From a virus (Duplodnaviria; Heunggongvirae; Uroviricota; Caudoviricetes): a stretch of DNA of 8,380 nt. Below the pieces are notes generated by a model. That model saw only the letters and a list, made by a program, of their open reading frames with translations, did not search any database and had not been told where the DNA came from. Location of the stretch: IMG/VR virus record IMGVR_UViG_2684622669_000009, positions 1-8,380 of that record; one strand, written 5' to 3'. Position numbers and translations under genes: made by a program. The first letter of the stretch is position 1. Each line of letters starts with the position of its first letter. Of the stretch, positions 1 through 8,380 are shown piece by piece.

Positions 1-232
1 CCAATTTATCCCTCAGGATCCTAAAGCGGTACTTTGGCGTCCAGACTATGGGATATTTGCAACGCCAATATACATGTGATGAACTTCTGTAAAGCCCCAT
101 GTCAGTTTGTTTCCTTTTACTTGTGGTGAGTAAGCAGAGATATTCCGACATGGGCATTCTTCAGGCTATAGCCTTACAGGATCAATCACCACCTCCCCAG
201 GAGGTGGTTTAGGGATAACAACAAAAAAACCC

Positions 233-256
233 GCAGTTACGCGGGCTTAGAGGTAC
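233..256 (-). terminator. Intrinsic (rho-independent) terminator downstream of the lysis cassette
   Basis: Stem cccgc (240-244) / gcggg (251-255) with a 6-nt loop; on the minus strand it is followed by a run of 7 T (plus-strand A-run 233-239). Lies about 165 nt downstream of the Rz stop. Confidence 0.6.
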
Positions 257-420
257 TTTACTGCTTTTACGTACAGGCTGTTGCCAGACGCGAAATCATT
301 CCCACTCAATTATTTACGACAACCATAACCAATTGAGTGATAACATTTTTCCAAAACCTCATTTTTCCCATACCGTTTTATATACCGTCACCGGAAATCA
401 GTACCATGAAAAATGCCATG

Positions 421-903
421 CTATCTGGTCAGGGTGTCGTACTGTTTTTCACAGACTCTTCCGGCTTCGGCTGCCCGGTCAGCATACTCTGCCAGTTGTC
501 TGTTTCTCTCGAGAGATTTGCTGAGCAAGTCGGCAAGCAAAACTCCGGTGTCTGCGGCTGACGCCCCAGCGCCGACAATGGCGTTATACTGCCTGAGCTG
601 CTCACGGATGGCAACGAGCTGTTGCTGCAACCGGCCAGCGCGAGCGGCAGCATCAAGAGCATCATTGCGCGCCTGGTCGATCCTTTGCTGAGCTTCACGT
701 TCATTGGTAGCTTTCTCCTGTTCGTAGTGCTGACGAACTATCTCATCTTCGGCTTTGCGATCTTCCTTCGCCTGCGCATACCCGGCTTCGTACTGACGAC
801 TGCCGTATGCATTCCAGGCTACAACTCCTGATATGACCAGAACAGCAAGCATCGCCATGATAACCAACTGTTTACTGTATGCTTTTGCGAATGCCCAGAT
901 CAT
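421..903 (-). CDS. Rz: Rz-like i-spanin (inner-membrane spanin subunit)
   Basis: 160 aa; N-terminal transmembrane segment (LVIMAMLAVLVISGVVAW) followed by a long charged, Q/A/E/R-rich predicted coiled coil. Its ATG overlaps the endolysin stop as ATGA (900-903), indicating translational coupling; it contains the embedded Rz1 frame. Confidence 0.85.
   Translation of the reverse strand: MIWAFAKAYSKQLVIMAMLAVLVISGVVAWNAYGSRQYEAGYAQAKEDRKAEDEIVRQHYEQEKATNEREAQQRIDQARNDALDAAARAGRLQQQLVAIREQLRQYNAIVGAGASAADTGVLLADLLSKSLERNRQLAEYADRAAEAGRVCEKQYDTLTR
429..704 (-). CDS. Rz1: Rz1-like o-spanin (outer-membrane lipoprotein), embedded out of frame inside Rz
   Basis: 91-aa ORF lying wholly inside the Rz ORF in another frame. 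N-terminus MNVKLSKGSTRR + hydrophobic AMMLLMLPLA + lipobox LAG|C is a typical lipoprotein signal peptide; the mature part is short and proline-rich as in lambda Rz1. AGGAGA Shine-Dalgarno about 9 nt upstream of the ATG at 704. Start could instead be the internal Met at 665 or 662. Confidence 0.75.
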   Translation of the reverse strand: MNVKLSKGSTRRAMMLLMLPLALAGCSNSSLPSVSSSGSITPLSALGRQPQTPEFCLPTCSANLSRETDNWQSMLTGQPKPEESVKNSTTP

Positions 904-1529
904 ACCGCCAGCACCTTACTGGCAGTGATGTACCGCGCGCGTCTGTCGTCGATTCCGTTCCTGCCACCATTGATAATCAGAGTTACACGTACAATATCTC
1001 CGGTATACTTCATGCAGCCTTTACTGGAGAAGAACCACGCCGCGCTACGAGCCGCGTATTCGTCCTGCGCCAGCAGTTCAGGACTCTCCAGCAGGTCAAC
1101 TTTCAGGCCGTTTCCGCAGTCACGATAGTTATTCAAACCGGTAATCTGGATAAGTCCGCGTCCTCGGTAATTCCAGCCATCACCAGGGGCATTGTTCCCC
1201 ATGCGTTTGCTGTACACCAGATTTGCAATCGCGCGCTGGCGCTCTAGTGGCAATGGTGGTTCACCAGCACGGCGACCCAGTGCATTAGCCTGTCCTTGGG
1301 TGAGACGCCCAGCCCGAACGAAGTTAGCCAGTCCGGTGACGCTGTAGTTGAAATTCTCCTGCAACCGGGTGAGGCCACCAGACTCATGCCCGACCTGAGC
1401 AATAAACATTGCTTGATCTTCGGCTTTGCTGATACCAAACTCTTTCATCGCAGAAGTTATATGCGAGAACCAGCGTGCAGCAAGCACCTCGCTAATACCA
1501 GCAGCTAGCTGGAATTGTTTAATCTCCAT
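900..1529 (-). CDS. Phage endolysin, glycoside hydrolase family 19 (chitinase-like lysozyme)
   Basis: 209 aa carrying the motifs I associate with GH19 phage endolysins: AQVGHESGG, PGDGWNYRGRGLIQITGLNNY, SPELLAQ, SAAWFF, INGGRNGIDDRR. Sits between holin-like genes and Rz/Rz1. Confidence 0.88.
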   Translation of the reverse strand: MEIKQFQLAAGISEVLAARWFSHITSAMKEFGISKAEDQAMFIAQVGHESGGLTRLQENFNYSVTGLANFVRAGRLTQGQANALGRRAGEPPLPLERQRAIANLVYSKRMGNNAPGDGWNYRGRGLIQITGLNNYRDCGNGLKVDLLESPELLAQDEYAARSAAWFFSSKGCMKYTGDIVRVTLIINGGRNGIDDRRARYITASKVLAV

Positions 1530-1830
1530 GTTTAAATCTCGTTATTTTGAAAATCTGAACGACGTTACCGCGCGTTTTAATAACCGCAGCAAGCATGACA
1601 GCGTTGATAATGACCTCAGATAAATCCACAGCCATTGGCGTGCGTAACCAGATTGCATAAACAACACGAACTGGAATACTGGCCGCAGCAACAATCAGGA
1701 AATAAGCAATCCACCCACCCCATCTTCGGTGTTGGGATCCGTTACGCTGGAAAGTGACAACGCGAATTGCTATGCCAGTACAAATAACCGCATTGGTGAT
1801 CAGCAAAAAAAGCTCATGAGTTACCATCAT
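1519..1830 (-). CDS. Holin-like small membrane protein (holin or antiholin) of the lysis cassette
   Basis: 103 aa with 2-3 predicted TM helices and a charged C-terminal tail (KTRGNVVQIFKITRFKHGD). GGAG-type Shine-Dalgarno upstream of the ATG at 1830. Overlaps the endolysin start by 11 nt and the upstream membrane-protein gene by 17 nt. Function is from position and topology, not recognised homology. Confidence 0.6.
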   Translation of the reverse strand: MMVTHELFLLITNAVICTGIAIRVVTFQRNGSQHRRWGGWIAYFLIVAAASIPVRVVYAIWLRTPMAVDLSEVIINAVMLAAVIKTRGNVVQIFKITRFKHGD

Positions 1831-2218
1831 CTTTTCTCCCCGGAATTAACTCGCGTGGATTATCTGAACGGTGATAGAGCCATATACCAATACGCACAGC
1901 GACAATTGCTGATACAAATGCACCGGCAGAAAAGACGACTCCTTTTTCGAATGATTCCTGCGTGATTGTTGGAATCAGGCTGGCTATGCCGATAAGAATT
2001 AATGCTGCTGGCTTGTAGAAAAGAAGACCACATAGAAAACTTAGTATCGATAAAAGAACACGACGACGAACAGGATACTCTACCGCTGAGGTAACAAAAA
2101 TTACCGCGCCCGCTAGTGCACCTAAAGCAACTTCTGGCGGCACACCAGCGACCACAGACATTAGCGCGCTCATGCTAAGCCCCTGATTCAGCGACCCTGT
2201 AGTTAATGTGTGCGACAT
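1814..2218 (-). CDS. Holin-like membrane protein (3 predicted TM helices), first gene of the lysis cassette
   Basis: About 134 aa from the ATG at 2216-2218 (GGTGG Shine-Dalgarno 5 nt upstream); the ORF track's start at 2227 is a GTG with no Shine-Dalgarno. Three hydrophobic segments and a charged C-terminus (YHRSDNPRELIPGRKDDGNS). Assigned by position and topology only. Confidence 0.6.
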   Translation of the reverse strand: MSHTLTTGSLNQGLSMSALMSVVAGVPPEVALGALAGAVIFVTSAVEYPVRRRVLLSILSFLCGLLFYKPAALILIGIASLIPTITQESFEKGVVFSAGAFVSAIVAVRIGIWLYHRSDNPRELIPGRKDDGNS

Positions 2219-2317
2219 AGAGACCACCGTTTAATGTGCATAAAGTCACCCCCCTTAGATGATGAGTCCATCATACACAATAAACCATATTGGGTTCAAA
2301 GAATCATAAAAATGCTC

Positions 2318-2347
2318 TTAACGAAATTACCTTAAAGGTGATATGAT
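2318..2347 (+). promoter_or_regulatory. Candidate sigma70 promoter for the acyltransferase gene
   Basis: TTAACG (2318-2323), 18-nt spacer, TATGAT (2342-2347), about 30 nt upstream of the ATG at 2378, in the AT-rich divergent intergenic region. Motif-level guess only. Confidence 0.3.
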
Positions 2348-2377
2348 AAATAAAATGATTCATGGTAGATATATAAA

Positions 2378-3472
2378 ATGTTCATTACTAACACTGATGT
2401 TTTTACCTTTCTTTTCTTAGCTATATCATTAATAGCGGCTATTTTTGTCAAAAAAATAATCCCATCAACCGTAATAAATGTACATAATGACACAACCTTA
2501 GAAGGTTTAAGAGGCATTGCATGCTTATTTGTATTTATAAATCATGCTTCATATAGCATTCATCACATCGGAATACAAAATTGGCAAATGATGGGTGATT
2601 CACCATATACCGGGAGAATGGGAGCTTTCGGAGTGGAGATATTTTTCTGTTTGACAGGGTACTTGTTTGCAAAAAAGATTCGCAAAGGAGATATAGACTT
2701 GTCATTTTTTGAAAAAAGAATCAGGAGGCTTGCTCCTGCATATATATTTGTATCATTTGTAGTTTTTATATATTTCGTATTTATGAACTATAATGTTATT
2801 CGTGGTTACTACGATATATCGGCTTTGATCCAACAAATTTTCGGATTCGGTTTCTTTGGGAATAGAATATCTGTAAACGGTATGGTGGATACATCATTGA
2901 ATGCTGTTGTGTGGACGCTTCCTTATGAATGGAAGTTTTATGCAATAGTCCCCTTCGTAGCGGCTATTTATAAGCTAAGAAGGCCTATCCCTCTACTTAT
3001 CGCATTTGGAGTAGCGACTGTTTGCATTGACTATTGGTCGAAAATGTTCTTGTGGGGGTTTTTCGTAACCGGATTCATTGCTTCATTCGTTGGTATTTTA
3101 GAAAATAGATATCTTAAGTATATCTCATATTACATAATGCTATTCCTATTTGCATATGCATTTAAGGGATCATTTGATATTCATGGTTTCCAAATGTTTG
3201 TCGTAGTATCTTTATTTTTCATAACATTTATTGCGGCAAGACCTAAGATATTCTCCATAGGAGTATTTGTTTACCTTGGAACTATAAGCTATAGCATTTA
3301 TCTACTACATCAGGTAGTTACAACGGTTTTCATGAAATTAATCTCTGGGGTAATCGATCTACTTACCATAAATATGTATGAATACTTAATGGTCTGCATC
3401 ATACCAATATCACTTACAATTTACTTATCATCTATTAGTTACAATAAAATAGAGAAAAAATTCATCAGATAA
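2378..3472 (+). CDS. Acyltransferase family 3 integral membrane protein; probable O-antigen / surface-polysaccharide O-acetyltransferase (lysogenic conversion gene)
   Basis: 364 aa, hydrophobic throughout (about 10 TM helices), with AT3-type motifs LEGLRGIACLFVFINH, FGVEIFFCLTGYL and SYSIYLLHQ. Markedly AT-rich compared with its neighbours (estimated by eye at roughly 30% GC). Opposite strand to the flanking phage genes. Confidence 0.85.
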   Translation: MFITNTDVFTFLFLAISLIAAIFVKKIIPSTVINVHNDTTLEGLRGIACLFVFINHASYSIHHIGIQNWQMMGDSPYTGRMGAFGVEIFFCLTGYLFAKKIRKGDIDLSFFEKRIRRLAPAYIFVSFVVFIYFVFMNYNVIRGYYDISALIQQIFGFGFFGNRISVNGMVDTSLNAVVWTLPYEWKFYAIVPFVAAIYKLRRPIPLLIAFGVATVCIDYWSKMFLWGFFVTGFIASFVGILENRYLKYISYYIMLFLFAYAFKGSFDIHGFQMFVVVSLFFITFIAARPKIFSIGVFVYLGTISYSIYLLHQVVTTVFMKLISGVIDLLTINMYEYLMVCIIPISLTIYLSSISYNKIEKKFIR

Positions 3473-3475
3473 ATA

Positions 3476-3507
3476 ATATTGGAGGGTTACTACCTCCAAT
3501 ATGTTTT
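3476..3507. terminator. Bidirectional terminator hairpin between the convergent acyltransferase and tailspike genes
   Basis: Perfect 10-bp stem atattggagg (3476-3485) / cctccaatat (3493-3502) with a 7-nt loop, followed by GTTTT on the plus strand and an A/T-rich stretch on the minus strand. Sits 4 nt after the acyltransferase stop and 13 nt after the tailspike stop. Confidence 0.7.
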
Positions 3508-3519
3508 GACTGCACTGTT

Positions 3520-5742
3520 TCAGCCGTTCGAGATTTTACCAGATATCCTAAATCTTAGCGCTCCAGATTTGATGTAATTGTATGTGAGGAAAGTTCTTGT
3601 GCCATCAGATGCCACGGCATAGAACTGAATCTTTGTGAAGTCTGTAGCTCCTGTAGGAATAAATCCAATAACATCGACAGTTCCTGCTGGTAATGCATTC
3701 CCAAGCGCTGTCCTGACCTCTATCTCGCATCCTGCCCCTGGATAAAAACCAAGCCCTCTGGGAAGGGTGATTGTGATATTTCCTGTACCGCCTGTTGTTC
3801 CTGTAACATTTATACTTACATGCAAATCAACATGCTCACCATCCCTCCTTGCAGTATATGTGCCAGTTTGTGTTACAGCTGTAGTATCATCGAAACCGAT
3901 ACTTCCAGTTAAGGCCGCATTAACCTGTAGTTCAGATTTAAATCCGCATATATTATTTCTCCACGGAATCGTTGGTTTATCACCATCCCATGTGATGGGT
4001 TGCGATGAAAAATGAGTTGTTTTATTACCAAGAAATTTTAAATTAAACAAGTTGTTATTTATATCGCCAACAAGATAAGCAGCATAAAAAGGTAGCCCTC
4101 CAGTAACAACCTGTTCATTGTGAGAAGTTACAACAGCATCGTGTATAGTATTGCTGGTTGAGCGAATCACAAACCCATAACCACCATTATCCATCGTTGC
4201 GCCAGAATCTGGATCTAATTTTGCAACGCTATCAGCATATGGTCTATAAAGTGTATGCCCACCAGATATCAATTCAAAACCGATTAACATTTGCCTGTTA
4301 GGATATAAATCATCTGATGTTTTAGGATGTCCCCATGGATGAGGATCTACAAGAGTATTCGATCCGGTACCAGAAATGCGAATGCCTATTGGATAATCTA
4401 TCGTTATAGGGTTTACAAAATGGCTATCACCAGTGCGAATCCACAATCCAACTACCGACTTGCTTTCCCATTTCATAATTCCAAAGCAACTATGCATAAT
4501 TGCGATTTCATAACCTATTGAAGGAATACCACCAATATCTGCCCCGCCTCTTAGCATCCCCCACGTTTCCATCTGACCTACCGTAACACCAGCTATATGC
4601 GTCATCAGAACACCAATTGCATCAACATGTTGGTAATATACGGTTCCCCAGTCAGTATTCTGCGTATGTCGTATGTGAATTCGTGGAATATAGGTACGCT
4701 TATCGCTATATGTGGTCGTTGGTGACATAATGTGATAGACAGCCTTATAGCTATTTCCTGCGGCATCTACTGTTTGGAAATCACCAGTTGGATCTGCCCA
4801 TATAACACCAGTCTGCAATACGCTAAGCCCTGCCAGATGCTTAATTGATGATTTAACCCGATAGACATTTGGCAGCCAAACTGTTTTGTTATTCTCATAA
4901 GCATAGTCATACGCATCCTGAATCATCACAGCCCAGTCAGTTTCTCCTGGATGATTTGCATAGAACTGCTCAGGTGTAACAAACTGCGAACGCGCAAATA
5001 GATCGTTTAAATCTGTTTGCACTGTACCGCTGGACATCGTGCCTATCAAACAACTTCCTGTTGGCTTCGCTAGTTCTATGAGAACATCAGCAGCAGAACC
5101 AGATTCTGGTAGTAGCATGATTGGGTTACCATTATCATCCATGCCTACAATTTTGTTTTTTCTCAACTCAACTGGTGGTAACTGCGGGATCATTTCTGCC
5201 GTGCGTAACGTTCTGCTAAAGAGAAGATCCGTATGCGAAGTGTTTCCAGCGCTAAGTGAGTCAGCATAATTCTTTGTCGCTGCATCCTGAGGGCGAATAG
5301 GGTCTCTTAAGTTTCTAATGTAGTTGTTTAGTGCGTCGTAATAATTAGCCACGAACGACGGCTTTCGCAGAACAAGGCTAAACCAACTACGCACTTGCTG
5401 GATCAGCATCGTCAGCTTATCGAACGCGTCTTCATGCACCTCAGCGAAAAACTTTCCCTGATTGCGCAGATCAGTTTCCTGCGTAACCGGTAGCTCTCGT
5501 GATATAGAAATCTGATAACCGTTAGCCAACGCCTTCGACAGAATTACATTACCGCCGTTATATCCTCCAGCTCCGGTAACTGTATAATCAGTATCAAGAG
5601 TCAGCACAGCAATATTTTCGTTAAGGTCAGAGACCTGAACAACCAAGTCGGATTTTTTGAAAATACGGAAGGTATACGGAAATGATGTCGTAACACCGTT
5701 ACCGGTGTATTCGTTGTGGTCAACTTCGGTTGAGACCGTCAT
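3520..5742 (-). CDS. Tailspike / tail fiber protein with putative polysaccharide depolymerase (beta-helix) receptor-binding domain
   Basis: 740 aa. The N-terminal ~150 aa (YTGNGVTTSFPYTFRIFKKSDLVV...LTLDTDYTV) follow the pattern of the T7 gp17 N-terminal particle-attachment domain. A downstream segment TPEQFYANHPGETDWAVMIQDAYDYAYENNKTVWLPNVYRV matches the signature at the start of pectate-lyase-type beta-helix tailspikes. Gly/Thr/Ser-rich C-terminus. GGAGA Shine-Dalgarno 6 nt before the ATG at 5742. Confidence 0.88.
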   Translation of the reverse strand: MTVSTEVDHNEYTGNGVTTSFPYTFRIFKKSDLVVQVSDLNENIAVLTLDTDYTVTGAGGYNGGNVILSKALANGYQISISRELPVTQETDLRNQGKFFAEVHEDAFDKLTMLIQQVRSWFSLVLRKPSFVANYYDALNNYIRNLRDPIRPQDAATKNYADSLSAGNTSHTDLLFSRTLRTAEMIPQLPPVELRKNKIVGMDDNGNPIMLLPESGSAADVLIELAKPTGSCLIGTMSSGTVQTDLNDLFARSQFVTPEQFYANHPGETDWAVMIQDAYDYAYENNKTVWLPNVYRVKSSIKHLAGLSVLQTGVIWADPTGDFQTVDAAGNSYKAVYHIMSPTTTYSDKRTYIPRIHIRHTQNTDWGTVYYQHVDAIGVLMTHIAGVTVGQMETWGMLRGGADIGGIPSIGYEIAIMHSCFGIMKWESKSVVGLWIRTGDSHFVNPITIDYPIGIRISGTGSNTLVDPHPWGHPKTSDDLYPNRQMLIGFELISGGHTLYRPYADSVAKLDPDSGATMDNGGYGFVIRSTSNTIHDAVVTSHNEQVVTGGLPFYAAYLVGDINNNLFNLKFLGNKTTHFSSQPITWDGDKPTIPWRNNICGFKSELQVNAALTGSIGFDDTTAVTQTGTYTARRDGEHVDLHVSINVTGTTGGTGNITITLPRGLGFYPGAGCEIEVRTALGNALPAGTVDVIGFIPTGATDFTKIQFYAVASDGTRTFLTYNYIKSGALRFRISGKISNG

Positions 5743-5898
5743 GTTAAATCTCCAGATAGTCGCAGCACCCGTTGCGCCGCATATCCGGTTATTCTATTAC
5801 CTGAAAAACCATATATGGATAGGTAACCCATAAATACGAACAGATATTACCTTTCAGGTAATTTGCAAAACGTGCTGGATAGCAAACAAATTATTTGA

Positions 5899-5918
5899 TA
5901 CTGTATATTCATACAGTT
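5899..5918 (+). promoter_or_regulatory. LexA (SOS) box overlapping the putative promoter of the 85-aa gene / Bro-N operon
   Basis: TACTGTATATTCATACAGTT matches the E. coli LexA consensus TACTGTATATATATACAGTA at 17 of 20 positions, with the CTGT-N8-ACAG core intact. It lies 20 nt upstream of the ATG at 5938, with a possible -10 TATATT (5904-5909) inside the box. Confidence 0.6.
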
Positions 5919-5937
5919 ATTGCATGGAGAAGATAAG

Positions 5938-6195
5938 ATGCAGCAGTATCACTATCCACTGGAAGACGGATTTACCGAAAGGATTCACACGCCGGGAGGC
6001 GTCAGGTCACTGGTGGAGGGATCGCACTTGATGAAATTACTCCGGGATCTCGATAAGGATGGATTTAATGTCGATGGCCCACTTACCGAACTGACTGCAC
6101 TGATTAACTACGTCACCAGCTCACAGATGTCTATGCAGGAGCTGCAAACACATCTCGACTATTGTGCCGAACAATTACGAAAGCAAACCAGATAA
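5938..6195 (+). CDS. Small protein (85 aa) paralogous to the C-terminal domain of the downstream Bro-N antirepressor; candidate SOS-induced antirepressor or modulator
   Basis: ATG at 5938 preceded by GGAGAAG. Aligns over its whole length with the last ~78 residues of the Bro-N protein (shared YxxPLxxG[FY]xxxIH[ST]PxGV...SxLMxLL...DGxxVxG...ELT...QTHxxY). The ORF-track start at 5920 is a TTG; the ATG with a Shine-Dalgarno is preferred. Confidence 0.7.
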   Translation: MQQYHYPLEDGFTERIHTPGGVRSLVEGSHLMKLLRDLDKDGFNVDGPLTELTALINYVTSSQMSMQELQTHLDYCAEQLRKQTR

Positions 6196-6333
6196 GGTTT
6201 GCAATTACCAAGCGGAGTGCTTATATTTACCTTTGCGGTAAATTTACATCGCACTCCTCTTGTGCCATAGTGATCAGGCACTGGCAAAATCCAGTGCCGG
6301 GATTGGCGTCCCGGATTACTAAAAGGCGCATTC

Positions 6334-6353
6334 ACCGCGCAAGCGGTTTTTTT
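6334..6353 (+). terminator. Candidate intrinsic terminator / attenuator between the 85-aa gene and the Bro-N gene
   Basis: 5-bp stem accgc / gcggt with a GCAA tetraloop, followed by a run of 7 T (6347-6353). The short stem suggests partial termination. Confidence 0.45.
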
Positions 6354-6510
6354 ATGCGTATAGCACGGTCACATTCGTATTATGGTGGGCTGTGTGGGGG
6401 CACCGAAAGGTGCGCCGGGTCCTTTTAGCCGGTTACGCCAACCCTGCACAGTTCACCACCAACCGATTGGCGTCGGTAGTGGTGATTAACCAGACTAAAA
6501 GGTAACCACT

Positions 6511-7197
6511 ATGACTGCTAACGTAACCCCATCTGTTTTTCATTTTGAATCAGAAGCAACCATTCGAGCCATTGTTATTGATGGAAATCCTTGGTTTGTT
6601 GCCAAAGACGTTATTAAAGCTCTTCAACTGACAAACCCCACTATGTCAATAAAATCTCTTGATGATGATGAAAGGGCTAAATTTAACTTAGGCCGTCAAG
6701 GCGAAACCAATATTATCAACGAGTCAGGCCTCTACACACTGATCCTCCGCTGCCGCGATGCGGTGACACCAGGCACTATCCCCTACCGCTTTCGTAAATG
6801 GGTTACAGGTGAGGTTCTTCCTCAGATCCGCCGCACCGGAAGTTACATTAAAAACTCGCTCCCGCAGGAAGAACGCATAAAGATGGTTGCCGACCAGGTA
6901 GCCAACGCCACAGCATCAGCAGTGATGCAGGCAATGAAGATAGAGAACAAAACCTACAGCGCCCCACTGAAGCCCGGCTACCGCAGTCTGATTCATTCTC
7001 CGTCTGGTGTTCTCGGCTTGACGGAGAACTCACTGCTGATGAATCTGCTGAACCGGTTACAGGAAGACGGGCACGACGTATCGGGCGCGGCGGCGGAGCT
7101 GACCACCATGTTCTGCTACATCGTCGGTGTGAGCAAATGCCTGCGTGATATCCAGACACACGCGGAGTACATCAACGACAAAGCAGGGTTCTTCTGA
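6511..7197 (+). CDS. Bro-N domain phage antirepressor-like protein
   Basis: 228 aa. N-terminal ~110 aa fit the Bro-N pattern (FHFESEATIRAIVIDGNPWFVAKDVIKALQL...ESGLYTLILRCRD). The C-terminal ~78 aa are paralogous to the upstream 85-aa protein. Confidence 0.85.
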   Translation: MTANVTPSVFHFESEATIRAIVIDGNPWFVAKDVIKALQLTNPTMSIKSLDDDERAKFNLGRQGETNIINESGLYTLILRCRDAVTPGTIPYRFRKWVTGEVLPQIRRTGSYIKNSLPQEERIKMVADQVANATASAVMQAMKIENKTYSAPLKPGYRSLIHSPSGVLGLTENSLLMNLLNRLQEDGHDVSGAAAELTTMFCYIVGVSKCLRDIQTHAEYINDKAGFF

Positions 7198-7204
7198 CGG
7201 CGGC

Positions 7205-7223
7205 GGCACAGGGATGTGCCTTT
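7205..7223 (+). terminator. Weak candidate terminator hairpin after the Bro-N gene
   Basis: Stem ggcaca (7205-7210) / tgtgcc (7215-7220) with a GGGA loop, followed by only TTT then AAA. A weak terminator at best. Confidence 0.3.
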
Positions 7224-7313
7224 AAATAATTCTGTACAGATTGCAGGTGAATAGCTTACTATTACCTCACGGGTGATCCATAGCGATTAGGCACCGATAC
7301 AGGAGGAGCCCAC

Positions 7314-7346
7314 ATGAGAAAATTTGACGAGTACGAAGGCGTTTAA
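7314..7346 (+). CDS. Mini-ORF (10 codons, MRKFDEYEGV) with a strong Shine-Dalgarno; candidate leader peptide
   Basis: AGGAGG (7301-7306) lies 7 nt upstream of the ATG at 7314; stop TAA at 7344-7346. An in-frame stop just upstream rules out a longer ORF. A hairpin follows 18 nt downstream. Tiny ORFs are often chance, so confidence is low. Confidence 0.25.
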   Translation: MRKFDEYEGV

Positions 7347-7364
7347 CATTCGGATAGTTTAATG

Positions 7365-7387
7365 ACGGGGCCATTAGGCCCCGTTTT
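7365..7387 (+). terminator. GC-rich hairpin (terminator or attenuator) immediately upstream of the 179-aa gene
   Basis: Perfect 8-bp stem acggggcc (7365-7372) / ggccccgt (7377-7384) with a 4-nt loop, followed by a short T-run (TTT then CAT). The downstream gene's Shine-Dalgarno starts only 8 nt after the hairpin, so the hairpin must lie in that gene's 5' leader unless the gene is read through from upstream. Confidence 0.45.
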
Positions 7388-7405
7388 CATGTCTGGAGAC
7401 AGTTT

Positions 7406-7945
7406 GTGTTAAGTGAAGAAATGCAATTTGCCATGGCTGTAGCTCAAATCGTAAGTGCAGTCGCGGTTTCGCTTGGCTTGTTCATAGCTATCGCTACTAT
7501 TATTTATAATGTAAATACAGCGAGAAAAGTACACACTTCAGTATTCCTTGGTGAAAGCAGGTTTGATGTAGATTATAAGAAAGGCCTATCTACTATGCGC
7601 CGCATTCACGAATCGAACAAATCATTCCGCTCTTATATGTATCCAAGCAATGGGCAGGCTGATCTTACGGATGAAGAAAAGACAGAGAAGAGAGAAATAA
7701 TTTACTGTCTAGGTTTCTACGAACGCATGGCTGTGAGCGTGAAGCGGAAAACTTATGATGAGACCATGATTAAGGAAGTATTTTACAGCTCCGTTGTAAA
7801 TAACTATCAGATTGCGCTACCTCTTATACAAGCCATTAGAGAAAAAGAAAACATAAACACATATTTTAAAGAATATGAATGGTTGGCCACACGATGGAAG
7901 GATTGCCCATTGAAGGATAAATCCCCGTGGTACAAGTTTTGGTAA
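7406..7945 (+). CDS. Membrane-anchored protein of unknown function (179 aa); candidate superinfection-exclusion / abortive-infection effector
   Basis: GTG start at 7406 with GGAGA 6 nt upstream (alternative ATG at 7421). One N-terminal TM helix (FAMAVAQIVSAVAVSLGLFIAIATIIYNV) then a ~140-aa charged soluble domain rich in K/E/Y. Lower GC than its neighbours (estimated by eye at roughly 40%). Followed directly by a strong terminator. I recognise no family for it. Confidence 0.7.
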   Translation: MLSEEMQFAMAVAQIVSAVAVSLGLFIAIATIIYNVNTARKVHTSVFLGESRFDVDYKKGLSTMRRIHESNKSFRSYMYPSNGQADLTDEEKTEKREIIYCLGFYERMAVSVKRKTYDETMIKEVFYSSVVNNYQIALPLIQAIREKENINTYFKEYEWLATRWKDCPLKDKSPWYKFW

Positions 7946-7966
7946 GCCCGCGCTGCGGGCTTTTTT
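7946..7966 (+). terminator. Intrinsic terminator after the 179-aa gene
   Basis: Stem gcccgc (7946-7951) / gcgggc (7955-7960) with a 3-nt loop, followed by a run of 6 T (7961-7966). Begins one nucleotide after the TAA stop. Confidence 0.75.
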
Positions 7967-8038
7967 GTGGACGAAACAAAAGTCAGTGCTACACTCATTG
8001 ACGCCACATTGAGGTGGCTTATAGATGGAAATTTCACA

Positions 8039-8200
8039 ATGAAAAAAGCATTTGCTGCACTGTTCGTTTTGTTGTCTCTGGTAGCTTCAACTCAGGCTTT
8101 TGCCGGTCGTTGTCAGCACGACAGCGATACTGCTGCTGACGGCTCCCGCTGCGGTGGGCGTTCTGCGGACTCCCGCCCGGGCGGCGGTGGCATTCGTTAA
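8039..8200 (+). CDS. Possible small secreted peptide (53 aa) with an N-terminal signal peptide
   Basis: ATG at 8039. MKKAFAALFVLLSLVASTQAFA looks like a Sec signal peptide with an AFA cleavage motif; the predicted mature part (~31 aa, Gly/Ser/Arg-rich, two Cys) is low-complexity. No clear Shine-Dalgarno, GC-rich region with ORFs in several frames, and a 5-codon upstream ORF (8025-8042) overlaps the start as ATGA. May be spurious. Confidence 0.3.
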   Translation: MKKAFAALFVLLSLVASTQAFAGRCQHDSDTAADGSRCGGRSADSRPGGGGIR

Positions 8201-8222
8201 AAACAAGGCCGCGAAAGCGGCC
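8197..8222 (-). terminator. Intrinsic terminator on the minus strand, downstream of the partial minus-strand gene
   Basis: Perfect 6-bp stem ggccgc (8207-8212) / gcggcc (8217-8222) with a 4-nt loop; on the minus strand it is followed by TTGTTTTTAA (plus 8197-8206). Sits 10 nt after the candidate minus-strand stop at 8232-8234. Confidence 0.6.
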
Positions 8223-8231
8223 TGTGACATG

Positions 8232-8380
8232 TCACGTCCCTTTTCTGAATGATATCCATTCGAAAAATGATGACATTCCACCGCAGACAACAGCAAAGAT
8301 GATCCCACCAAAGAAGAGAATGCCAGCCTGCCACCACTCCCACCGCCATACATCCACAGCGCCAACCATACCAACAATCG
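8232..8380 (-). CDS. 3' end of a minus-strand gene for a hydrophobic, Trp-rich small or membrane protein; partial, continues beyond the window
   Basis: Hand translation of the minus strand in the frame that stops at 8232-8234 gives ...IVGMVGAVDVWRWEWWQAGILFFGGIIFAVVCGGMSSFFEWISFRKGT*, which ends cleanly just before the minus-strand terminator. The overlapping ORF-track frame (8087..8377) would run through that hairpin and is low-complexity. A complete 46-aa protein from the ATG at 8367-8369 is also possible. Confidence 0.3.
   Translation of the reverse strand, partial: IVGMVGAVDVWRWEWWQAGILFFGGIIFAVVCGGMSSFFEWISFRKGT

Follow-up and report, generated by a model that had tools for sequence, protein, structure and literature searches.

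A phage locus probably encoding two antirepressors on one Ant domain, a LexA-gated stand-alone form and a C4-controlled Bro-N fusion

The window analyzed in this study, a stretch of 8,380 nucleotides (nt; IMG/VR record IMGVR_UViG_2684622669_000009, positions 1 to 8,380), is a segment of an epsilon15/phiV10-like (Uetakevirus) prophage. It contains two genes, ant and broN-ant, which encode the same small domain twice, once as a stand-alone protein of 85 amino acids (aa; Ant) and once at the C-terminus of a 228-aa protein, behind a Bro-N domain (Bro-N-Ant). We consider it likely that the locus specifies a pair of antirepressors, each with a version of the repressor-binding Ant domain, with the short form gated by LexA and the long form controlled by a C4 antisense RNA. 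The two genes have the following features.

5899 to 5918, plus strand: LexA box TACTGTATATTCATACAGTT, 5' of ant, with one mismatch to the 20-nt consensus
5938 to 6195, plus strand: ant, 85-aa stand-alone antirepressor ('type A'), orthologue of SPC32H Ant by sequence (5D50_E, E = 6.4e-46)
6511 to 7197, plus strand: broN-ant, 228-aa putative antirepressor
6562 to 6822 (aa 18 to 104): Bro-N domain of the long protein (Pfam PF02498, 72.3 bits against a cut-off of 25.6)
Between the Bro-N and Ant-like domains of the long protein: helical linker
6949 to 7182 (aa 147 to 224): Ant-like 'type B' domain of the long protein (5D50_E, E = 1.9e-13)

BLASTP aligned residues 2 to 79 of the short protein with residues 147 to 224 of the long protein without a gap (29 of 78 residues identical, 37%; 56% positives; E = 3e-18). 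An earlier note on this DNA, made by eye, had taken the short protein for a stand-alone paralogue of the C-terminal domain of the Bro-N protein, quoting strings and coordinates that proved correct. The pairwise alignment for which it called bears out the paralogy, with an identity a little lower than the 40-45% judged by eye and above the level of about 20% below which the idea was to be given up. Both proteins also matched PHROG 450 (E = 1e-46 for the short and 1.5e-35 for the long protein) and the Protein Data Bank (PDB) chain 5D50_E, the short one along residues 2 to 84 (against 3 to 85) and the long one along residues 147 to 223 (against 3 to 79), and no Pfam family covers the C-terminal domain of the long protein. 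The family alignment split into two subfamilies, the stand-alone, SPC32H-like type A and the C-domain of the long proteins, type B, which are 35-40% identical to each other and each conserved within itself; residues Y4, I16, H17, G21, L25, S29, L35, D41, G42, V45, E51, Y58, and H72 are invariant in both. The low nucleotide similarity described earlier was found as well, with 46% identity over the aligned 234 nt of the two genes and saturated synonymous sites (proportion of synonymous differences, pS, 0.86). The ratio of nonsynonymous to synonymous substitution rates (dN/dS) was 0.05-0.07 for the short copy (against the Salmonella and Enterobacter copies) and 0.08-0.24, with saturated dS, for the C-domain of the long protein. 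The divergence of the two copies is old, and both are under purifying selection. No description of the Ant/Bro-N-Ant paralogy was found in the literature.

The short protein is, by its sequence, an orthologue of Ant of the Salmonella phage SPC32H. It is about 85-88% identical to SPC32H Ant (85.5% by tblastn to ant of the Salmonella phages SPC32H and SPC32N), and chain E of 5D50, 'Anti-repressor protein', was the one PDB sequence that it matched, over its whole length. A Pfam match to DUF724 was rejected as noise (18 bits against a cut-off of 38). In SPC32H, Ant reportedly takes apart the DNA-binding tetramer of Rep, a non-cleavable repressor with two helix-turn-helix (HTH) motifs. SPC32H Ant is described as a small antirepressor that forms a tetramer and was crystallized with Rep (Kim et al. 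2016 PNAS; PDB 5D50, 5D4Z), and a review citing Kim & Ryu 2013 describes, for Salmonella prophages of this kind, LexA cleavage followed by production of the antirepressor, which inactivates the repressor by protein-protein interaction. The earlier suggestion that the short form is the actual antirepressor is thus right, as the orthologue of a protein crystallized with its repressor. Phage phiV10 encodes a repressor homologous to SPC32H Rep (5D50_A, E = 1.9e-41), and therefore a Rep partner exists in the phage group of the window; phiV10 matches the window locus at about 95% nucleotide identity. A 194-aa HTH repressor is also encoded by an epsilon15-like E. coli prophage (L015 among the loci compared).

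The ant gene has a GGAG Shine-Dalgarno (SD) sequence 8 nt 5' of its ATG. The LexA box upstream of it is close enough to the consensus that only 0.01 such matches are expected by chance, and it aligns with TACTGTATGTTTATACAGTG at the equivalent position of SPC32H. The pattern CTGT-N8-ACAG was present once, at the homologous position, in 10 of the 11 epsilon15-like ant loci fetched (L001-L004, L007-L011, and L016); the Klebsiella locus L005 had no exact match at that position. No LexA box was found 5' of the long gene. In the proposed mechanism, LexA would sit on the box at 5899-5918, and DNA damage, by causing LexA cleavage, would lead to the production of the 85-aa Ant as the SOS trigger. This protein would bind the non-cleavable two-HTH Rep and dismantle its DNA-binding tetramer, as may be expected from SPC32H, given the 85% identity and the same locus layout.

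The region between the two genes carries an RNA cassette with the elements of a C4 system, as listed below.

6199 to 6227, plus strand: sigma-70-like promoter TTGCAA-17-TATATT, directly 3' of the ant stop codon; candidate for driving the RNA/long-gene cassette
6265 to 6353, plus strand: a1/b1 target element, an isrK-type RNA with an intrinsic terminator (Rfam)
6302 to 6309, plus strand: b1, AUUGGCGU
6319 to 6326, plus strand: a1, CUAAAAGG
6334 to 6353, plus strand: intrinsic terminator ending the isrK element
6378 to 6463, plus strand: C4 antisense RNA (Rfam RF01695, 77.7 bits with gathering at 45; full length, model positions 1-87)
6421 to 6428: C4 loop a', CCUUUUAG, pairing with a1 and a2
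6435 to 6441: C4 loop b', ACGCCAA, pairing with b1 and b2
6466 to 6473, plus strand: b2, AUUGGCGU, downstream C4 target
6495 to 6502, plus strand: a2, CUAAAAGG, downstream C4 target and SD region, 8 nt 5' of the long-gene ATG

The Rfam family isrK (RF01394) was matched at 6278-6353 with 77.9 bits (gathering 50) and c4-a1b1 (RF03163) at 6265-6317 with 45.0 bits, just below its gathering value of 46.7. The promoter hexamers are kept in the Enterobacter phage Tyrion (TTGTAA...TATTAT), with a diverged spacer. All four other loci with a long gene that were compared (L002, L005, L007, and L011) have isrK and C4 5' of it, and isrK/C4 is absent from SPC32H. The C4 loops have complements to either side, a1/b1 upstream and a2/b2 downstream, and across five loci (the window, Tyrion, the Klebsiella phage, the E. 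coli prophage L007, and the Salmonella prophage L011) the loop, the upstream target, and the downstream target change together.

Window: b' ACGCCAA; b1 = b2 AUUGGCGU; a' CCUUUUAG; a1/a2 CUAAAAGG
E. coli prophage L007: b' CGCCAA; b1 = b2 AUUGGCGU; a' CCACUUAG; a1/a2 CUAAGUGG
Tyrion and Klebsiella phage: b' AGACCAA; b1 = b2 AUUGGUCU; a' CCUUUGUAG; a1/a2 CUACAAAGG (a1 of Tyrion is CUACAGAGG, a G·U-compatible change)
Salmonella prophage L011: b' GUGCAAA; b1 = b2 AUUUGCAC; a' CCUUUGUAG; a1/a2 CUACAAAGG

The cognate loop-target duplexes were the most stable, or tied for it, in every comparison. C4 and its targets co-vary into at least four specificity types between phages, as expected of an immunity determinant. 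In the proposed mechanism, transcription from the promoter just 3' of ant would run through the a1/b1 (isrK) terminator element and yield a processed C4 RNA, whose two loops would pair with a2/b2. Because a2 is the SD sequence of broN-ant, translation of the long protein would be held off as long as the cognate C4 is present, by analogy with phages P1 and P7, and the diversification of C4 and its targets, as the covariation suggests, would set the specificity classes. The statement in the earlier note that an operon encodes the domain twice therefore holds for the two copies, one alone and one fused to Bro-N, and not for the operon. The short gene has its own LexA box, and a promoter-like site, the isrK/a1b1 terminator element, and the C4 RNA lie between the genes, on which grounds a single plain operon was rejected.

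Stx (Shiga toxin) phages carry the isrK/C4 cassette, with 81% nucleotide identity, 5' of an ORF6N+P22_AR_C antirepressor that is unrelated to the long gene. Since the same cassette precedes P22_AR_C there, the RNA cassette is a generic one, and what goes with the type of repressor in the resident phage is the C-terminal domain of the protein. The cassette of RNA and long gene is absent from SPC32H and epsilon15, which have the short gene only; in SPC32H, a terminator and virion genes stand directly 3' of ant. These two observations indicate that the long gene came in with a mobile cassette. Therefore, of the old duplication under selection that was proposed earlier, the age and the selection stand, and the second copy did not arise by duplication on the spot. 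A recent tandem duplication was likewise rejected, in view of the nucleotide divergence and the saturated synonymous sites as well as these distributions.

The RNA region has probably been mis-annotated in several ways. Mechanical open reading frames (ORFs) lie over isrK/C4 in the window (6162-6428 on the plus strand and 6159-6335 on the minus strand; 88 and 58 aa), an 'ash family protein' coding sequence is annotated over the C4 RNA of phage vB_EcoP_ZX5 (ZX5; L016 1944-2057), and many metagenomic gene calls lengthen the Bro-N protein to 279 aa through the C4 RNA.

An exhaustive profile search over 1.84 billion representative proteins returned only 65 members of the domain family, which are either stand-alone proteins of 82-98 aa or proteins that end in the domain, after Bro-N, AntA, Phage_pRha, or ORF6N. 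A word-indexed search with the short protein gave close stand-alone copies only, and the exhaustive search was needed for the fusions. Since this Ant domain is likewise found at the end of AntA, Rha, and ORF6N proteins, the N-terminal module appears interchangeable; the shared C-domain would be a module fitted to the epsilon15-type Rep, and Bro-N a generic N-module. Type-A and type-B queries matched the same 35 of 50,697 phage records, and those inspected or named were all epsilon15-like phages of Escherichia, Salmonella, Klebsiella, and Enterobacter. Among the 50,697 records, none without type A was seen to have a second copy of the type-B kind. The Salmonella phages SPC32H, SPN1S, epsilon15, and similar ones have one copy, and both copies are present in the majority of E. 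coli, Klebsiella, and Tyrion records. The layout of short gene, gap, and long gene recurs in E. coli and Salmonella prophages.

Some of these loci differ in detail. In the Klebsiella phage ST512-KPC3phi13.3 (L005 3346-3804), a pair of 85-aa and 65-aa proteins, HicB/HicA-like by eye, is encoded between the short ant and the isrK/C4 cassette. Phage TL-2011b (L004 3280-4368) has about 1.1 kilobases (kb) between the short ant and the Bro-N gene, where the opposite-strand annotation reads only 'similar to hypothetical protein'. L015 encodes a 97-aa stand-alone type-B domain (P0122; 5001-5294), 91% identical to the C-domain of the window, at the end of the early-left operon, where its gene overlaps the methyltransferase stop codon and adjoins int; this is a third genomic position of the domain. 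The 'stand-alone type B' of Raoultella and Klebsiella (P0128) was rejected as such, being a set of 5'-truncated long-gene remnants in which the coding of the linker continues upstream of the called start.

The occurrence of the long gene bears on whether it could be a decaying passenger, that is, a moron or what is left of an acquired immI-like cassette, without a present role in the phage of the window. The gene is frameshifted in phiV10 and absent from SPC32H and epsilon15, and 5'-truncated remnants occur in degraded prophages (L012), as a passenger would lead one to expect. However, the gene is unbroken in the window as well as in relatives from E. coli, Enterobacter, Klebsiella, and some Salmonella, its C-domain has a dN/dS of 0.08-0.24 (at saturated dS), the covariation of C4 and target is maintained, and overexpression of its ZX5 counterpart, ORF4, has a functional effect (PMC9782041). 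We hold this explanation to be the least likely of those considered. The frameshifted gene of phiV10 spans L001 4259-4938 (phiV10p23 and p22), and the O157 typing phages 9 and 10 appear to have the same.

The ZX5 experiments also speak to what the long protein does. The short protein of ZX5 is 98% identical to that of the window, and ORF4 of ZX5 is 82% identical to the long protein overall and 99% identical from about residue 70 on (the C-half). When ORF4 was overexpressed during infection, prophage copies fell from 1e9 to 1e6, total and free phage stayed at 1e10, and repressor transcription went down by 75% (PMC9782041). The authors name ORF4 'the' antirepressor, without mention of the short ORF, SPC32H, or LexA (PMC9782041). 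This promotion of the lytic outcome by a protein with a 99%-identical C-half is the behavior of an antirepressor, and it leaves the decoy or dominant-negative role suggested in the earlier note unsupported. We propose that Bro-N-Ant is a second antirepressor, acting through its homologous C-domain, which would bind Rep as judged from sequence. The first 70 or so Bro-N residues are mosaic between the two phages (window 6511-6720 against L016 2063-2280), with divergence from ZX5 there and near identity downstream, which suggests intragenic recombination.

Alternatively, the shared domain might be mainly a tetramerization module. In that case, Bro-N-Ant would act as a tetramer that regulates by Bro-N DNA binding, or as an antirepressor against another target (e.g., the repressor of a co-resident prophage), and not a second inhibitor of its own Rep. 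Several observations are compatible with such a role: SPC32H Ant is described as a tetramer, many of the invariant positions are hydrophobic (I16, L25, L35, V45, and Y58), DNA binding is ascribed to Bro-N and related domains (PMC9782041), cross-acting antirepressors are documented in Salmonella prophages, and the long form is dispensable in phiV10. Nevertheless, we regard it as unlikely, given that polar, surface-type positions are invariant as well (H17, D41-G42, E51, and H72) and that ORF4 pushed ZX5 itself towards lysis (PMC9782041). Moreover, type B is found among sequenced phages only in epsilon15-like phages that have type A and, where checked, a Rep homologue, and the P22_AR_C domain behind the same RNA cassette in the lambdoid Stx phages shows that the C-domain tracks the repressor type.

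Co-assembly of the short and long forms into mixed tetramers, with one modulating the other, would be a version of the dominant-negative or decoy idea, and we consider it very improbable. Both proteins carry the homologous domain, the characterized family member is a homotetramer, and the genes are adjacent, so that co-transcription by read-through after SOS induction is possible, with the stretch from the ant stop codon to the isrK element free of terminators. Against this, the two domains form clearly separate subfamilies (35-40% identity), each conserved within itself, and the genes are under separate controls. In addition, Ant of SPC32H is described as working alone, and the long form overexpressed by itself already drives ZX5 towards lysis (PMC9782041).

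Two antirepressors directed at one Rep would also be in keeping with a set of palindromes in the window. The pattern TTACC-N5-GGT(A/G)A has 13 matches there, against 0.84 expected, and three of them are placed around the two genes.

5847 to 5861: palindrome TTACCTTTCAGGTAA (TTACC-N5-GGTAA), about 54 base pairs (bp) 5' of the LexA box
6227 to 6241: palindrome TTACCTTTGCGGTAA, overlapping -10/+1 of the cassette promoter
7262 to 7276: third palindrome TTACCTCACGGGTGA, downstream of broN-ant

The position of the palindrome 5' of ant is conserved in all relatives. The one at the cassette promoter lies exactly 51 bp 5' of the isrK match in the window, L002, L005, L007, and L011, with a spacer that varies between phages, and a matching palindrome stands 3' of the long gene in L007, L016, L004, and L012-14. 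In SPC32H, three copies of the palindrome lie in the rep-cro intergenic region, where the two genes diverge, and three more follow closely on the downstream side of rep; the layout in phiV10 is similar. The half-sites of the cassette-promoter palindrome are identical to those clustered around rep in SPC32H and phiV10. From their positions, the palindromes may be Rep operators; a literature search on the epsilon15 operator found nothing useful. If they are, the cassette promoter would be controlled by Rep, as the promoter of P1 immI is controlled by C1, and this may allow, without proving it, that the long form acts after a first inactivation of Rep. The palindromes 5' of ant, on the cassette promoter, and 3' of the cassette suggest that the locus is also wired to Rep itself. 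Copies of TTACC-N5-GGTRA were further found at 2327-2341 and 2080-2094, between the holin-side operon and the O-acetyltransferase gene, suggesting that the same regulator acts there.

These elements could be combined into a two-stage circuit, which we put forward as a tentative and rather doubtful extension. The LexA-gated Ant would hit Rep first, and the loss of Rep would derepress the cassette promoter. Bro-N-Ant, with the Rep-binding domain that it shares with Ant and perhaps anchored on DNA through Bro-N, would then provide Rep-gated positive feedback and make induction irreversible, with the co-transcribed C4 RNA setting the threshold and the heteroimmunity classes of epsilon15-like phages. 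In a variant of this circuit, the short and long forms would also mix into hetero-tetramers.

Several points weigh against the interpretation of the locus as a pair of antirepressors acting on one Rep. The binding of Rep by the type-B domain rests on 37% identity, and the common residues could mainly reflect the tetramer core. In the AlphaFold2 model of the 228-aa protein, the predicted local distance difference test score (pLDDT) is above 80 for the Bro-N part only and below 50, a low confidence, in the C-half of the monomer. The ZX5 test was a plasmid overexpression of a glutathione S-transferase (GST) construct and included no Rep-binding assay. The long gene of phiV10, a viable temperate phage, is frameshifted within the Ant-like domain (ORFs of 194 and 29 aa), and since the long form is also absent from SPC32H and epsilon15, it is dispensable for SOS induction. 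Repression of the cassette promoter by Rep, if it occurs, would leave lysogens with little C4 RNA, which would fit poorly with superinfection immunity of the P1 style. The hexamers of the ant promoter failed a simple promoter scan. Finally, the immunity region is outside the window, and Rep is taken from near-identical relatives.

The surroundings of the locus are those of an epsilon15/phiV10-like prophage. Megablast of 5750-7400 matched phiV10, TL-2011b, ZX5, O157 typing phages, and others at 94-97% identity, and Tyrion at 78%. In the plus-strand order 3' of the tailspike gene, the 85-aa ORF is followed by a 315-nt gap, the 228-aa Bro-N ORF, and a DUF4760 ORF. The neighboring genes are as follows.

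Minus strand: spanin, endolysin, and holin genes
2378 to 3472, plus strand: Acyl_transf_3 O-antigen acetyltransferase (Pfam)
3520 to 5742, minus strand: tailspike, 740 aa
7406 to 7945, plus strand: DUF4760 protein, 179 aa (Pfam 107.5 bits; PHROG 2284)

The DUF4760 gene, placed after the antirepressor cassette and the third operator-like palindrome, is moron-like in appearance, and its protein had no PADLOC match. The PADLOC search gave no match, and NCBIfam gave nothing useful. A sub-threshold Rfam match to the Trp operon leader at 221-337 on the minus strand (32.7 bits against gathering 41; E = 0.001) is probably due to chance.

Taken together, the analysis links the hitherto unannotated C-domain of widespread enterobacterial Bro-N, AntA, Rha, and ORF6N antirepressors to a structure that has been solved and a partner that is known (Rep, PDB 5D50), and the C-terminal domain of these long antirepressors is annotated here for the first time. 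It supports the view that repressor specificity lies in the C-domain of modular antirepressors. Many epsilon15-like prophages of E. coli, Klebsiella, Enterobacter, and some Salmonella join LexA-Ant and P1-type C4 control in one 1.4-kb locus that would be directed at one repressor type, and phiV10 relatives carry O-antigen-modifying genes. Annotations can also be corrected: the short gene is usually labelled 'hypothetical', and the 'anti-repressor' of ZX5 is the second copy and not the SOS trigger. The locus could serve as a tractable model for studying what makes a phage retain two antirepressors.

Among known systems, Rep/Ant of SPC32H shares with the window the orthologous short protein, its position adjoining the tailspike gene, and the LexA box, and close relatives of the window have a Rep homologue. 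SPC32H has a stand-alone Ant only, whereas the window adds a diverged, Bro-N-fused Ant domain (37%) behind an RNA control cassette. The immI operon of P1 and P7 consists of the c4 antisense RNA, the a1/b1 and a2/b2 targets, icd, and ant1/ant2, and the CI RNA of P4 and the CA RNA of N15 immA are related to it. As in immI, the window has a C4-family RNA between upstream and downstream target pairs, a downstream target over the ribosome-binding site 5' of the antirepressor gene, and loop and target sequences that differ between related phages. Unlike immI, it has no icd-like leader ORF between the end of C4 (6463) and the start of the long gene (6511), so that C4 targets the SD sequence of the antirepressor gene itself; the antirepressor consists of Bro-N and an SPC32H-type Ant domain, and the phage is an epsilon15-like podovirus. 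The modular phage antirepressors (Bro-N, AntA, Rha, ORF6N, or KilA-N with ANT/KilAC, P22_AR_C, or other C-domains) likewise combine an interchangeable N-module with a C-module, and Tum of phage 186 and the split tum of Fels-2 and PSP3 show one function in fused and split forms. The C-module of the window differs in having no Pfam family and in being, through 5D50, the small SPC32H Ant fold, with the stand-alone and fused versions in one locus.

The isrK-orf45-anrP-isrJ region of Gifsy-1 is also similar, with an isrK-type RNA that has a leaky terminator, then a stable processed RNA (STnc1160), and an antirepressor-like gene (PMC4825925). According to Hershko-Shalev et al. (2016, PMC4825925), IsrK acts in trans to turn on translation of the downstream message, and antQ is driven by AnrP, whereas the anatomy and covariation in the window fit the repressive C4 model, and no equivalent of orf45 was identified there. 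The nearest precedent for one phage with both an SOS antirepressor and an RNA-controlled antirepressor locus is N15, which has a LexA-controlled antirepressor (antC, of the SOS regulon) and immA with its small processed RNA. In N15, the two loci are apart and a shared domain is not reported, whereas those of the window are adjacent and have paralogous effector domains. The locus does not represent a novel type of system but a combination not described so far, in which the SPC32H Ant domain occurs both stand-alone and fused in one locus, under LexA and C4 control, respectively.

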